From a virus: a stretch of DNA of 64,000 nucleotides. The notes below the pieces were generated by a model, which was not told the origin of the DNA, did not search any database, and saw nothing but the letters and a program-made list of their open reading frames with translations. Numbering within the stretch: the first letter of the stretch is position 1; every line of letters starts with the position of its first letter. Below are positions 48,221 to 53,268 of the stretch, piece by piece. The position numbers were made by a program, and so were the translations under genes. The stretch is from positions 1 to 64,000 of the IMG/VR virus record IMGVR_UViG_3300005537_000023; one strand, written 5' to 3'.

Positions 48221-48418
48221 TCACCTCCCGCCTCCGTGCTTCCGCCGCCTGTCCATCTCGCAAAGCATCTGTGCCCAGCCCACAACGGGCGTCGCGTCGA
48301 TCGTCTCCATGTAGTGGCGGCGCACCACGCGGTTGATGGTGGCGAGGCACGCGTCCGCGCGGGCGCACTCGCGATCGGCGCGGGCGATTTCGGCGGCCAA
48401 GGCTTCTTCTGTCGTCAC
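48221..48418 (-). CDS. hypothetical protein
   Basis: overlaps the recombinase stop. Confidence 0.45.
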   Translation of the reverse strand: MTTEEALAAEIARADRECARADACLATINRVVRRHYMETIDATPVVGWAQMLCEMDRRRKHGGGR

Positions 48419-49521
48419 TTCCCACCTCCCCACCCGTAGCCGAGTTTTTCGATGGCTTCTTTCGCGACGCGATCGCCGCGGCGATCGTAGCCGGCCGTCG
48501 TCTTTGGATTCGCATGCCCCGCGATGCCCTGCACCGTCACCAAGTCCACGCCCTTGTCTAGCAAGCGCGAGATGAGGGTGCGCCTGAAATCGTGCGGCGA
48601 CACCTTCTCCTTCAACTCCACGCTTTGCCAGTGCCGTTGCACGGCGAGATAGATGCCGGCAGGCGAGATGTGGCGGTAGATGACTTTGCCCACGCGCGTC
48701 ATCGGGCAAACGAGTGGCCCCGCCGCCGTCCCGCGCACGCGCAGCCACGCGTCCATCCCCGCCTTCATGTCCGACGGGAACGGCACCTCGCGAGGCTTGC
48801 CGCCCTTGCCCTTGCCGCGCTGGACGGTGATCGATCCAGCATGCCCTGGCGACGGCGGCGCCTTGTAGTCCGCCGTGTCGAGGCCAGCGATCTCGAAACG
48901 GCGCAGGCCGCAACCGAGGCCGATGGCGAGGATCGCGGCATCGCGGGCGCCGATGGGCGTGGCGAGATCGCAGGATGCCAGCAAGTCCACGATTTCTTGC
49001 TGTTCCATCATGCGTCCGGCCTTGGGCGAGTCCACCTTCACGCCCTTGCACGCCTCTTTGATGCCGTCGAAGTCGTCGCTGTTGATCAGCGTCTTGCCCC
49101 CCGCATCCTCGATGTAGCGGCATTGGTGCATTACGCCTTTGAGTGCAGAGAGGGCCTGGCGGATGGTTGCCGGCGAGATCATGCCTGGCGCCCTCGCTCG
49201 CCTGCCGGCCCGCTTCGCTGACGGCCGCCCAGCCGCTAGCTTCGTCGTGTTGGTAAGCGTCAGCCTAATGAGGCGCGCGGACGTGTAACGGATCTTCGTC
49301 CAGTCGACGGAATAGATCGCCGTCATCGCATCCAAGCCGGCAAGCTTGGCATTGATAATTCGGGCGATGCGGGCGAGGGCGTCACGCATCGCACGCATGC
49401 CGCTGGGGCGGAGGCCGGCGAGGTAGAGGGTGACCGGGTGCTGCATCCGATCGCCGGCCGGCGCCGGGAGGACGAGGGCGGAGAATGCGTCGGGTTTGGC
49501 GGTGGCAAGGGCGGTGGTCAC
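48415..49521 (-). CDS. tyrosine recombinase (integrase/resolvase)
   Basis: RDAAIL...GLRRFE, GKG, SPHDFRR, AGH....TTAGY catalytic residues. Confidence 0.95.
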   Translation of the reverse strand: MTTALATAKPDAFSALVLPAPAGDRMQHPVTLYLAGLRPSGMRAMRDALARIARIINAKLAGLDAMTAIYSVDWTKIRYTSARLIRLTLTNTTKLAAGRPSAKRAGRRARAPGMISPATIRQALSALKGVMHQCRYIEDAGGKTLINSDDFDGIKEACKGVKVDSPKAGRMMEQQEIVDLLASCDLATPIGARDAAILAIGLGCGLRRFEIAGLDTADYKAPPSPGHAGSITVQRGKGKGGKPREVPFPSDMKAGMDAWLRVRGTAAGPLVCPMTRVGKVIYRHISPAGIYLAVQRHWQSVELKEKVSPHDFRRTLISRLLDKGVDLVTVQGIAGHANPKTTAGYDRRGDRVAKEAIEKLGYGWGGGK

Positions 49522-49727
49522 TGGCCCCCCGCGCGGCGTGCGGCCGACCACTCCGAATCCAACCTATCCAACTTGTCGAGCGCGCGGCGCATCTCTGCGC
49601 TGACGTGGCTATTCCGCCGCATCTCCGCGGCGGCAGCAGCCACACGGAGAAGTTGCCGCACGTAGCGCGGGTGCGAGCCATCGCCATGCTCCGCGAGCAT
49701 CGTCACCCATTCCGCCAGGGTAGTCAT
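49518..49727 (-). CDS. hypothetical protein
   Basis: coupled ORF. Confidence 0.5.
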   Translation of the reverse strand: MTTLAEWVTMLAEHGDGSHPRYVRQLLRVAAAAAEMRRNSHVSAEMRRALDKLDRLDSEWSAARRAGGQ

Positions 49728-51220
49728 CGATACACCCACCCGATCATGTCCGAGTACCCTTCCCGGCAGACTCGTCCGAACCGCGCGCCCAGCCTGCACA
49801 GCGCATCATGGTAGCGCGCGCTCAGGTGGTTGCCTTCCGTGTGGTGCGCGAATTCGTGAAGCACCAACTCGATCACCTTGTCCGCCAGCGGATCGTCGAA
49901 GAAGCGCGCGCCCAGCGTGGACACGTTGAACCACAGGTGCGGGCGCTTGTCACCGCCGCCCCACTGCGCCTGCACGGTGATCACCGGACTCTCGAAAAAC
50001 TCCACGTCGATACCCTCAGCGCCGTCGAGGATGCGCGTGCTGAGGAAGTCCACGAGACGGCGTGTGGACTTCATGCCCATCGTCTGCCTGTCCGGCGGGA
50101 TCGTCGTGAAGTCGTCGCTGGACGGCGTGGACATGTGCGAGGGCGTCACCTTGCTGGCCGGAAGGATGGCGCCGGCGCGGCGCGCATTCTCCCATTCGCC
50201 CGCGGACATGGATCCGCCATGCACCACCACGTAGCCCTCACTCTTGGCGATGTCCTCGGCCTCGCGATCGTTGGGGTCCGGCGAGACGCGCTTGTCACCG
50301 AAGCGCAGATCGAGCACGCGCTTGATGGCCGCGTCGCTGCACCCGCTGGCGTCCGCCGCCTCGCGCACCCACTCGGCGGTGGCGTCCGTGGCGCCCAGCA
50401 TGTCGTGCGCTTCGTTCAGTACGGCCACGCGGATGTCTTTCAGGTAGCCGGGCGTCACGTTGTCCCGATCGGTGTTGAGCGGGATTTTCTGCCGGACGTC
50501 CACGTCGAAGGCGTCGCCGGTTTCCACCACGGGGATGCCCAACTCGTACAGCCAGCCGCTTTCGCCGGTGCGCGGGCGATGGAGGCGAAGAGACGTGTGG
50601 CGGTACTTGCGCGTCATGCGGCCAGTCTCATCCGCAAGCTCCGTAGCGAGGCACACGCTACCAACCGTCCGCACGGGCGCCGGCGATCGGATGTCCTCGC
50701 GGTTGATCCGCAGCGTCACGCCCTCGGGGACGAGGATGCGTGAGGCGCGGGTGATCGCGCGCTGCATCTCATCTCGCGTGATGCGCACCTCGGCGCGGAA
50801 GACGCTGCCCACAACCGTCTTCTCCTTCATCTTCCGGCGCGTGCCATCGGCCTCGAAGCGGACGCCGCCGGTGGTGCTGACGATCTCGGCCCACTCGCAC
50901 CGCGCAATGACGAGTTTTTCGCCGAGGTTGAAGCGGCCACGCAACTCGGGGTCACCCTTCTTCGCGCTCTCGGCAAAGAGGACATAGGCGTGCGAGAGAT
51001 CCACGAAGCCGGTGGGATCGTCGTCGCCCACCACCACGAGGGCACGCGGCGCGTTGGGCATGGGCTCCACCGTCACCTCGACGGTGCGCGCCTTGGTGTC
51101 CAGCGCGTTCTGGATCAATTCGAAGAGGATGCTGGCCGGGTCGCGCGTGGCCAGCGTCTTCTCCAGGCCGCGCGCGTCCACCTCGAACCAGCCGCGGGCG
51201 AAAGGCTTCCGATCGTTCAT
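49724..51220 (-). CDS. GHKL (HATPase_c/Hsp90-like) ATPase fused to a C-terminal zincin motif
   Basis: ELIQNALD, DDDPTGF, RGRFNLGEK, GSVF; HEFAHH. Confidence 0.85.
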   Translation of the reverse strand: MNDRKPFARGWFEVDARGLEKTLATRDPASILFELIQNALDTKARTVEVTVEPMPNAPRALVVVGDDDPTGFVDLSHAYVLFAESAKKGDPELRGRFNLGEKLVIARCEWAEIVSTTGGVRFEADGTRRKMKEKTVVGSVFRAEVRITRDEMQRAITRASRILVPEGVTLRINREDIRSPAPVRTVGSVCLATELADETGRMTRKYRHTSLRLHRPRTGESGWLYELGIPVVETGDAFDVDVRQKIPLNTDRDNVTPGYLKDIRVAVLNEAHDMLGATDATAEWVREAADASGCSDAAIKRVLDLRFGDKRVSPDPNDREAEDIAKSEGYVVVHGGSMSAGEWENARRAGAILPASKVTPSHMSTPSSDDFTTIPPDRQTMGMKSTRRLVDFLSTRILDGAEGIDVEFFESPVITVQAQWGGGDKRPHLWFNVSTLGARFFDDPLADKVIELVLHEFAHHTEGNHLSARYHDALCRLGARFGRVCREGYSDMIGWVYR

Positions 51221-51462
51221 GGGCAACCTCCTACGCCTGGTTTGACGGGCGAGGCTTCTACTTATTCATACCAGCCATTCGCGTGAGGATCAATCGGTGG
51301 CCGGCAACGCTTCCACGCGCCGCACAAGGCGCTCGTATTGCTCCATGGCCTCCGCTTCTGTCTCGCAACGCTCTTGCGTCTGATCGAGCGGGCCGCCGAA
51401 AACCATAGTCTCGTAATACCCCATCCTCCAACGGCAATTCGACGACGCGCGGTCGAATACGG

Positions 51463-52171
51463 CATGCTTATCCGGTTGTCACCCACAGCGATTCGCCTTC
51501 CACAAATTCCCCAAAGCTGCACGCGCGCATTCGAGAACGTGAACGAGCAACGCCGCGTCTTCGTCGTGTCCGAACGCCGGAACGAATGGAGCGCTCGCCG
51601 GGTGAAGAATGCGAGCCGGATCGGTTCGTTGTTGGTGCTTTTCGACGATTGTCACCGCGAGGTCGACGACGGGGCTCCGATGAAACGCTCGGGCGGGGAA
51701 GCTGTAGCGATACCCGGCCGGAATGACGAACCTGACCGTCTCGACGGCGTAGCGTTCATCTGTCGGCGTCGTTGGACCGTGATATTTGCTGTCCGCCGCC
51801 GCGCGGGCGTGCGTAAGAAGCGTCGCCGTGAAGTCCCCACGGGGTTCCGCGGTCGCGTGCCACTCCTCGTGCACGACGTCACCAATGAGCACGTGGGAAA
51901 CCATATCGAAGCGGTGATCGTGCACGTCGCCGTTCGCCTCGATGCCTGGCTTGATCAGGTCGGGATGCCACACGTGGACCCGGACCTCCGGCTCCGTGTG
52001 CTCGACGAGATATCCCTGCAACACGCCGATGCCGTGGTGTCGCCACGAGATCGACGGGAACGCGTGAAGCAGAGTGGCGGCGAGAGCGTGGTGCGCGTCG
52101 TCGCGAACGATTCGAGTCAGAGCGCTCATTTCCAAATCTCCCAAGTTGGGGGTGCTAACCGGATAAGCATG
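51463..52171. mobile_element. non-autonomous TIR cassette with 8-bp target duplication
   Basis: perfect 15-bp TIR CATGCTTATCCGGTT (20/22 when extended); GAATACGG at 51455-51462 and 52172-52179. Confidence 0.9.
51479..52129 (-). CDS. cupin (cysteine-dioxygenase-like) protein, cassette cargo
   Basis: VRVHVWH...VHDHRFDMVSHVL...FH. Confidence 0.8.
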   Translation of the reverse strand: MSALTRIVRDDAHHALAATLLHAFPSISWRHHGIGVLQGYLVEHTEPEVRVHVWHPDLIKPGIEANGDVHDHRFDMVSHVLIGDVVHEEWHATAEPRGDFTATLLTHARAAADSKYHGPTTPTDERYAVETVRFVIPAGYRYSFPARAFHRSPVVDLAVTIVEKHQQRTDPARILHPASAPFVPAFGHDEDAALLVHVLECARAALGNLWKANRCG

Positions 52172-52881
52172 GAATACGGCAGTCCGCGCAGCCGACACCA
52201 CTCCGCCAGCGTGTGCGTCACGCCGTCCAGTGTGATCCGAACGTTGGTGCTCATGTTGTTCTGCTGAACGAGCCGCGTTGTCCATCGGCAGTTGAAGGTA
52301 TCGCCTCTTCGCAGGCAGTCGTCGCAGTGACCGCACGTGTACCCGCGCGCGTTGTCGATGCGGTCGATCTCCAACGTGGCCAGCGGGCGAAGGCCCATGT
52401 CTTTCAGGAACGATGCATACGAGTTCGACCAGCCGTCACACACACGGATTCCCTTCGCGCCGTAGAACTTGAAGGCGAAGTGTGACGGCCGTTGGCACTT
52501 GTGCCGTATCCGTTTCCACACCTCGTATTCCGGCTGCCGAGACATCCGATCTTTCGGGTCTCGTCCCAAGACGCGCGAGCACCCGCACGACGTGGCATGC
52601 CCGGACACAAGGTCGGTGGCGCGCAGCGTCTTCATTCGACCGCAGTCGCACAGGCACGACCAAAGGTGATGGCTGTTTCGTTTATCGACGTAGGCCACGC
52701 ACGTCAGTCGACCAAATCTGTGGCCTTTCATTCCGTCGCACGCCATCATCGCGCATCCCTCAGCCAGGCGAGGACGGCGCGGCGAAGGTCCAACAACGCG
52801 AACGTCTCTTTGAGTTGCCGCTGCGAACTGACATGCATGTCCGGCGGCTCCTCTTCGCCAACCACACGCTCGGCCGAGGGG

Positions 52882-53268
52882 TCATGGTGCGTTGTTCCTT
52901 CGATCGCACTCGGCCTGCGCTTCGCCGGTAGGCCACAATCGCGATTCAGGGTGCAACGTCCCGCACCCGTTGTCGGTGAACATGTAGACGAACAGCACCG
53001 GCCCCGACTCCTCATCGTCATCGATACCCGGCCGCACTGTTTCGGCGCGGATATTCCTGATTGTTCCGCGGTCGGTGATTACCCAACCGAAGCCGCGCGC
53101 CTCCGTCTCTTTTTTGCCGTGGCACTTCGGGCACGCGTATCGCTCGCCGCGAAGCATGCACGTCCCTTCGCCCTCACATGCGCTGCATCGTTCTGGTGGG
53201 AGACGCACCGACGTCCGCGTGATCACCGACACGACATCGCCAAGGTTGTACTTCGACTCGAACTTCAT
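52882..53268 (-). CDS. DnaJ-type Zn-finger phage protein
   Basis: CSACEGEG...CPKCHG. Confidence 0.7.
   Translation of the reverse strand: MKFESKYNLGDVVSVITRTSVRLPPERCSACEGEGTCMLRGERYACPKCHGKKETEARGFGWVITDRGTIRNIRAETVRPGIDDDEESGPVLFVYMFTDNGCGTLHPESRLWPTGEAQAECDRRNNAP

Follow-up and report, generated by a model that had tools for sequence, protein, structure and literature searches.

A 709-bp one-gene cassette with IS1595-type ends inside an HNH-like gene of a soil phage

In this report we focus on a 709-bp unit in the genome of a soil phage, IMG/VR record IMGVR_UViG_3300005537_000023, which is 73,232 bp long, has direct terminal repeats and is rated complete; "the window" below means the whole stretch of DNA that was analysed, bases 1-64,000 of that record. 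With a probability of about 0.82, we read this unit as a mobile insertion cassette that is non-autonomous, derives from an insertion sequence (IS) of the IS1595 family and was moved in trans. It has ends like those of an autonomous IS, a passenger gene, no transposase and a flanking duplication of the length found in the family, which are the traits of mobile insertion cassettes. The unit would have retained the two terminal inverted repeats (TIRs) that a transposase recognises, with a passenger gene in place of the transposase gene. An IS1595-family DDE transposase, supplied in trans, would have bound both ends and inserted the unit into an AT-rich 8-bp target in an HNH-like gene, duplicating GAATACGG. 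The likeliest source of that transposase would be a 1928-bp element at positions 69377-71304 of the same phage genome.

The cassette and the gene that it interrupts

The cassette spans window positions 51463-52171 and carries TIRs at both termini. An inverted-repeat search paired a left arm at 51463-51487 (plus strand), where the cargo gene ends, with a right arm at 52147-52171 (minus strand), where it begins (pair I1). The two 25-nt arms are 88% identical (22/25), and their outer 15 nt, CATGCTTATCCGGTT, form a perfect inverted repeat. A repeat search returned the direct repeat GAATACGGCA at 51455-51464 and 52172-52181 (family D20); its extra CA coincides with the first two TIR bases, and the target-site duplication is accordingly 8 bp, GAATACGG, with one copy at 51455-51462 on the left and the other at 52172-52179 on the right. 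Such a combination of inverted ends, 8-bp duplication and AT-rich target is the signature of DDE transposition. The TIR 15-mer is present in the window in exactly two copies, in inverted orientation. When up to three mismatches are allowed, the window has four matches against 1.04 expected from shuffled sequences, and the 73,232-bp genome has four matches at up to two mismatches, where the reversed control has none.

Between these ends there is a sole open reading frame (ORF), 51482-52129 on the minus strand, which encodes 216 aa. Including its stop codon, the cargo gene occupies 51479-52129, or about 92% of the cassette (651/709 nt); its ATG lies 42 nt inward of the right end and its TGA (51479-51481) falls within the extended left TIR. 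The leader, 52130-52146 on the same strand, holds a GGGAG motif 9 nt before the ATG, which resembles a ribosome-binding site and may act as one. Searches against Pfam and NCBIfam found no coding remnant of a transposase in the cassette, and there is no IS1595 transposase in the 64-kb window, the genome's only one being located outside it, at 70454-71125. This is the arrangement that an earlier note on this DNA had described from its letters, namely a 709-bp unit with perfect 15-bp TIRs, flanking 8-bp direct repeats, a single gene starting 42 nt inside one end and stopping in the extended TIR, and no transposase visible in the window, and each of these points is borne out. That note had spoken of a cargo-carrying miniature inverted-repeat transposable element (MITE) or a mobile cassette. 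The ends, the duplication and the partner element described below support the latter, while we reject the MITE label, since MITEs are non-coding and about 92% of this unit codes for a conserved 216-aa protein. For the same reason, mobile insertion cassette is the better label.

The cassette lies in a gene that has the same orientation as the cargo. The truncated upstream part of this gene is an ORF of 207 aa (52126-52749, minus strand), in which ...RLRGLPYS is followed by 14 last residues, MLIRLAPPTWEIWK, that are encoded by the cassette. The displaced 3' part (51262-51462, minus strand) belongs to an ORF at 51262-51522 on that strand, and beyond the left duplication it reads PYSTARRRIAVGGW..., which continues the frame of the upstream part when the cassette and one duplication copy are taken away. 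The end of the upstream ORF and the continuation from the left duplication thus lie in one frame, so that the earlier claim of a frame restored by removal of the unit and one duplication copy holds. Two PHROG families that bear the label HNH endonuclease match the gene, phrog_374 with E 2.9e-45 and phrog_3377 with E 6.5e-35. Neither an HNH family of Pfam (E ≤1) nor any NCBIfam family does, the sole Pfam row, RdRP at E 0.12, being chance level. We therefore call the gene HNH-like, without any homing claim.

Relatives of the interrupted gene, 122 at E ≤0.001 among 247 candidates and the best of them 43% identical, have after a conserved TLAEW motif a module that ends R-x-R-[LIM]-x(2-4)-G-W. In P0122, which is the best relative, the module is G-x15-W with R-x-R-L inside, and the distance from the conserved G to the W is 16 residues. 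The window gene without the cassette and one duplication copy has the same 16-residue spacing, a comparison made by eye because MAFFT misplaced the short 66-aa remnant. Since this spacing is kept once the unit is taken out, the gene was intact when the insertion split it inside the last of its conserved modules. The proposal that the C-terminal module was truncated is hence right in that the module is interrupted, but it was cut in two, not removed. The in-frame tail that follows (51262-51420) exceeds that of the relatives in length, and it shares sequence with a 44-aa ORF of another frame (MGYYETMVFGG..., 51290-51424, minus strand), which starts in the conserved GW codons and has no family match.

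The junction with the cargo gene is equally compact. On the minus strand, the TGA of the truncated ORF (52128-52126) overlaps the cargo ATG (52129-52127) as ATGA. As a side observation, the frame of the interrupted gene enters the cassette via an ATG contained in the terminal CATG. In view of the shared orientation and the stop/start overlap, the inserted cargo is probably transcribed by read-through from the promoter of the interrupted gene, and it is perhaps also translationally coupled to that gene.

The resident IS1595 element and sibling cassettes

The earlier note had expected the TIR to lead to an autonomous partner and to sibling cassettes with other cargo, and both turned up. The partner is in the same phage genome, outside the window and 17.2 kb from the cassette. 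It is 1928 bp long (69377-71304; locus L005 5377-7304), and its ends, CATGCTCATCCGGTT at 69377 and 71304, are identical to the cassette 15-mer at 14 of 15 positions. It is flanked on both sides by its own 8-bp duplication, TAATATCG, which is AT-rich like GAATACGG, although the genome in which both targets lie is GC-rich. Its 345-aa ORF (genome 70220-71257) matches the NCBIfam model NF033547 (IS1595 transposase) with 170.5 bits, over positions 2-215 of 215 and against a cut-off of 75, and in Pfam it matches DDE_Tnp_IS1595 (PF12762, E 3e-29) and Zn_ribbon_IS1595 (PF12760, E 1.3e-10, residues 20-66). A genome-wide search with NF033547 gave 171.8 bits and no internal stops for this gene (70454-71125), the sole IS1595 transposase gene of the genome. 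The transposase is full length and has all invariant columns in common with five relatives from viral contigs, to which it is 60-64% identical; among the invariant residues are D146, D230 and E294, which are presumably catalytic. As set out in the accessible part of PMC8101967, IS1595 members usually have an 8-bp duplication and one transposase gene, whose product has a zinc finger at the N-terminus and a DDE domain at the C-terminus, and a zinc-ribbon domain is found in all IS1595 groups except IS1016. The resident element has a DDE_Tnp_IS1595 domain, a zinc ribbon, TIRs and an 8-bp duplication.

Several features of this element deserve description. Between its left end and the transposase gene there are three small ORFs (92, 66 and 53 aa; genome ~69497-70162, locus L005 5497-6162), none of which has a Pfam or PHROG family match. 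Like the cassette, the element interrupts an ORF, whose upstream frame closes with ...GGLPADATVIS and whose downstream part continues VISGDSPGGGADQW... (L005 ORF 7265-7636). The two halves of the split gene have no Pfam match and a weak PHROG match (E 0.0025), and we take the gene, by impression, to resemble the SLOG/DUF2493 type. The stop codon of the transposase is situated within an inner, degenerate copy of the end (…CTAACCGGATAGGTGTCATG; L005 7244-7263, genome ~71244-71263), ~40 nt inside the true right end, which makes it look as if the element had duplicated or renewed its right end. Compared with 50,697 GenBank phage records, the transposase has a single distant match, at 26% identity, and among genome contigs it has one weak match, in Nocardia uniformis, at 33% over ~50 residues. 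Given that single distant match among GenBank phages, the family belongs, for the present, to uncultured viruses.

The siblings were found by scanning IMG/VR viral contigs for exact matches of CATGCTYATCCGGTT, and all figures that follow cover the matches listed, which come to at least 144 stretches of viral contigs. The letter-reversed control occurs in 28 stretches, all of them single. Scripted comparison of the listed matches found at least 32 plus/minus pairs that lie 184-1191 bp apart, 24 of the 32 with a perfect 8-bp duplication. As one element is present twice in reverse, the distinct sibling units number at least 31, with perfect duplications in 23 of the 31. Each unit has one ORF that covers 51-99% of its length and starts 1-93 nt inside one end; for L022 and L075, a near-equal ORF on the opposite strand was used for family searches instead of the longest. 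The cargoes of the 31 units are mutually unrelated. Four of them match Pfam at E ≤0.001: a D12 N6-adenine methyltransferase, a NADAR protein, an N6/N4 methylase and a MazG-like protein, whose match is below Pfam's cut-off. Eight match PHROG at E ≤1e-5, namely five DNA methyltransferases (one a 44-aa fragment), a PAPS reductase, a DNA modification protein of the Mom-like kind and the NADAR protein, whose PHROG family has no assigned function, and the remaining listed cargoes have no match in that search.

Conservation of the ends extends beyond what the scan itself imposed. Positions 16-25, which the search leaves unfixed, are conserved among the 64 listed ends (C at position 20 in 62, C at position 22 in 59 and A at position 23 in 57), and both ends of the window cassette fit this consensus. 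In many siblings the ends are constant over ~28-43 nt while the ORF differs from unit to unit. A transposase-like match is found in 20 of the 144 listed stretches. Nineteen of these matches are 53-75% identical to the resident transposase, and in these 19 the match adjoins the repeat wherever the end of the gene is visible in the locus; that is, 15-mers identical to the cassette's adjoin transposase homologues in other viral contigs. The remaining match, in L031, is 28% identical and ~770 nt from the repeat. Some transposase-bearing copies (L026, L091) also hold small passenger ORFs, two to four in number, at the position where the resident element has its own, to which they are unrelated. Among the siblings, we also noticed a sub-group (for example L044 1501-1974, L054 1501-1890 and L055 1501-1944) whose TIR extends imperfectly to ~40 nt, with a conserved CTAGATGTTGA motif in it. 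A number of cargo ORFs apparently start at the ATG of this motif, giving ML... proteins, and others start 15-40 nt further in.

The cargo protein and rival explanations

The cargo protein belongs to a sizeable family with no functional name: 268 of 836 candidates are related to it at E ≤0.001, the best with 68% identity, and it matches phrog_4784 (E 5.4e-15). In an alignment of 35 sequences (A1), it keeps all 43 invariant columns, which argues that the cassette copy is intact. The invariants include R30-H31-H32-G33, H70-D71-H72-R73-F74, H79, T106-H107-A108-R109, H150, E163-K164 and F186-G187-H188, and among them H70, D71, H72, H79, H150 and others are the same in 35/35 sequences. An AlphaFold2 model (pLDDT 92.9, pTM 0.90) was compared with known structures in two ways. 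Foldseek gave 147 PDB matches at E ≤0.001, with cupins and JmjC oxygenases in the top rows (TM 0.37-0.42); the matches include the sugar isomerase 3kmh (E 8e-6, TM 0.37), ribosomal oxygenases and cysteine dioxygenase. VIA-align gave 45 chains with Z ≥8, headed by 4qm8 (Z 9.5, rmsd 3.1 Å over 127 residues) and including RemF (Z 9.4) and quercetinase (Z 9.2). Both searches return cupin or double-stranded beta-helix proteins only. As modelled, the cargo has a cupin fold, and the scores point to nothing more specific. It matches 0 Pfam families at E ≤1, 0 NCBIfam families and, with the A1 profile, 0 PDB sequences at E ≤10; the name cupin used in the earlier note thus stands at the level of the fold but not at that of a Pfam or NCBIfam family.

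What the protein does can be approached from several sides. It is probably a metal-binding enzyme. In the Atlas, its own family scores 0.96, with one cluster auto-named 'Cupin domain-containing protein', and the cysteine-dioxygenase clusters that score 0.77 are a lead at most. Among GenBank phages, it resembles seven hypothetical proteins of Brevundimonas jumbo phages (33-35% identity). Clustering of the neighbours at 48 homologue loci found no conserved neighbour; the largest cluster that is neither self nor antisense is present at 6/48 loci and has no Pfam family. In a separate observation, an 847-aa ORF in L017 (1072-3615) with two GT2 glycosyltransferase domains (PF00535, E 7e-23; PF13704, E 1.4e-6) has a cupin homologue (40% identity) as its C-terminal part. 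Either the fusion is genuine or the ORF merely runs on in GC-rich DNA; it would be a single lead toward sugar chemistry for the cargo. Profile scans located homologues at 49 loci (13 viral and 36 metagenome, some of which are the same contig in both collections), and with up to three mismatches allowed a repeat pair brackets the homologue at 0/49 of them, four loci having a single 15-mer at three mismatches that we take as chance. With none of 49 homologues in a cassette, the cargo appears to be an ordinary phage accessory gene that was captured once.

If the cassette was moved in trans, the resident element is the obvious candidate for the helper, since it agrees with the cassette at 14 of 15 terminal bases, has a duplication of the same length and encodes the only IS1595 transposase of a complete genome. 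We lean toward it as the actual helper. The mover might instead have been another IS1595-family transposase, for example one encoded by the host chromosome or by a co-infecting phage. The ends of the resident IS differ past base 15, where the cassette ends fit the consensus of the other viral-contig copies, and the transposase relatives with 53-75% identity, in 19/144 listed stretches, stand beside ends with T at position 7 like those of the cassette. However, ends with C at position 7 bound cassettes too (3 of the 64 listed cassette ends), and this, along with the agreement just mentioned, leaves an outside helper as a possible but clearly less favoured source. Much less probable, in our judgement, is that a complete IS inserted into the HNH-like gene and later had its transposase gene swapped in place for the cupin gene by recombination. 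Constant ends of ~28-43 nt around different ORFs do suggest cargo exchange between fixed ends, but such a history needs two events where one suffices, the cassette bears no coding trace of a transposase, and perfect duplications at different sites in 23 of the 31 listed sibling units (282-1191 bp) are what transposition of small units predicts.

Two further explanations can be given hardly any weight. The 216-aa protein could itself act as transposase or recombinase for a minimal element that is autonomous, being the only gene between the repeats and having a conserved set of His- and Asp-rich motifs, but its model has a cupin fold and its matches are only of the cupin or 2-oxoglutarate-oxygenase type. 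Moreover, its homologues lack the repeats at all 49 loci, whereas the same ends surround the 31 unrelated ORFs listed as well as genuine IS1595 transposases. That repeats and duplication are due to chance or to misassembly is just as improbable. The source is indeed a metagenome assembly with support at the level of contigs only, but the two inverted 15-mers are exact, an 8-bp duplication accompanies them, the frame of the interrupted gene closes, and the same ends recur on the genome's own IS1595 element and on dozens of duplicated units elsewhere, against singles only for the reversed control.

Several observations nevertheless weigh against a mobile insertion cassette moved in trans, or against parts of that account. 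Subterminal bases 16-25 of the resident IS (AGAGGGGATA, TTCGGTGACG) are off the CRCMCACA consensus that the cassette ends follow, so that the resident transposase may not be the mover. Single-sequence and profile scans of viral and metagenome contigs found no second copy of the cupin cassette, and its own mobility thus rests on one insertion. Eight sibling pairs among the matches listed lack a perfect duplication, one of them agreeing at 7/8 positions. No sigma-70-like promoter and no terminator was found in 51200-52900 (0 sites each), which is why expression of the cargo is argued from gene orientation only. In the two sequencing runs examined, both as contigs, neither an empty site nor an excised form was seen, and there were no joints. 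One contig of run X1 crosses the entire insertion stretch with 0 differences, but it may itself be the source of the window DNA and is therefore not independent support; coverage by run X2 is limited to 51088-51287 and comes from a relative. Finally, no related phage in which the gene is uninterrupted was found, the best HNH-like relative being the one at 43% identity.

Some observations on the same data are added here. The sibling pairs with imperfect duplications are L022, L035, L039, L055, L056, L061, L138 and L155; in L056, the left flank resembles a portion of a further end, suggesting that cassettes have been stacked or have recombined there. The truncated 207-aa product and the cargo protein are each found on two contigs, the longest of 73,269 bp. 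No relative of the 500-aa neighbour protein (49724-51226, minus strand) was found among viral contigs, nor was a close relative of the phage; this protein has weak matches to HATPase_c_3 (E 0.0012) and to a YgjP-like metallopeptidase (E 0.023). A 378-aa ORF further on (48415-49551, minus strand) looks, from the impression of its sequence, like a tyrosine integrase; if it is one, the phage would be temperate.

Significance and comparison with known systems

According to the available portion of PMC11602168, phage genomes are held to contain few insertion sequences because insertions are soon purged. Here, one complete phage genome holds a full IS1595 element and a one-gene cassette, which have matching ends and each lie within a gene. 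If the cassettes move as their anatomy suggests, transposition would be a route by which phages gain or swap accessory genes one by one, those for DNA modification and probably counter-defence among them, and the list of cargoes would become a catalogue of candidate functions that includes a cupin family of at least 268 members. Two such elements in one genome would also offer an experimental handle, with one transposase and two kinds of substrate. A bolder view, which we put forward tentatively and regard as rather unlikely at this stage, is that the cassettes are a working gene-shuttle of environmental phages and not occasional products of IS decay. Two constant IS1595 ends, together with a short leader, would then accept a single ORF at a time, and phage- or host-borne transposases would spread one-gene cassettes among phage genomes in an integron-like manner. 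Much of the identifiable cargo in the listed units has the look of DNA modification or counter-defence (methyltransferases, Mom-like, PAPS-reductase-like, NADAR and MazG-like proteins). Were this view true, the cupin would represent a new enzyme of phage counter-defence or of DNA/nucleotide modification, and the 73-kb phage, with its autonomous element and its cassette, would be a natural model.

Transposase-less elements of this kind are known as mobile insertion cassettes (MICs), an example being MIC231, derived from IS231, in the Bacillus cereus group. Like MICs, the cassette has IS ends around a passenger gene instead of a transposase gene, a duplication of the parental type and presumed mobilisation in trans. 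Unlike MIC231, its parent is of the IS1595 and not the IS4 type, its replicon is a phage genome, it has exactly one ORF behind a ~42-nt leader, and it has at least 31 listed siblings with unrelated cargo. There is also a parallel with integron cassettes, which are recombined by a tyrosine recombinase at attC/attI and have neither inverted terminal repeats nor a target duplication. In both cases, small units carry one promoterless ORF each, the accessory cargo is diverse and the short ends are constant; the signature of the phage cassette, in contrast, is that of DDE transposition.

The IS1595 family, for which the reference is reportedly the work of Siguier, Gagnevin and Chandler of 2009, also has members that carry passengers. 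In the part of PMC5704250 that is available, tISCpe8 and MTnSag1 are described as passenger-carrying IS1595 elements with a 'transporter IS' layout. The resident element is similar to these in having three small passenger ORFs besides its transposase gene, and it is similar to the IS1595 family at large in its Zn-ribbon and DDE_Tnp_IS1595 domains, its ~25-bp TIRs and its 8-bp duplication. The cassette differs from both, as it has no transposase, while tISCpe8 and MTnSag1 keep theirs and reside on plasmids or chromosomes of Firmicutes and not in phages. MITEs have been catalogued in viral genomes (accessible parts of PMC11602168 and PMC6004678), IMG/VR contigs included, and the cassette shares with them a small size, the lack of autonomy, inverted-repeat ends and target duplications. 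It departs from them in its coding content, MITEs being non-coding by definition. In the portion of PMC11602168 at hand, the words 'passenger', 'cargo', 'methyltransferase' and 'IS1595' each have 0 occurrences. We found no published account of IS1595-type one-gene cassettes recurring in phages, a provisional statement that leaves supplements and most subscription journals uncovered. Transposase-less cassettes with IS ends and passenger-carrying IS1595 elements are therefore known kinds; what is new here is the presence of the autonomous partner in the same phage genome, together with the large set of siblings.

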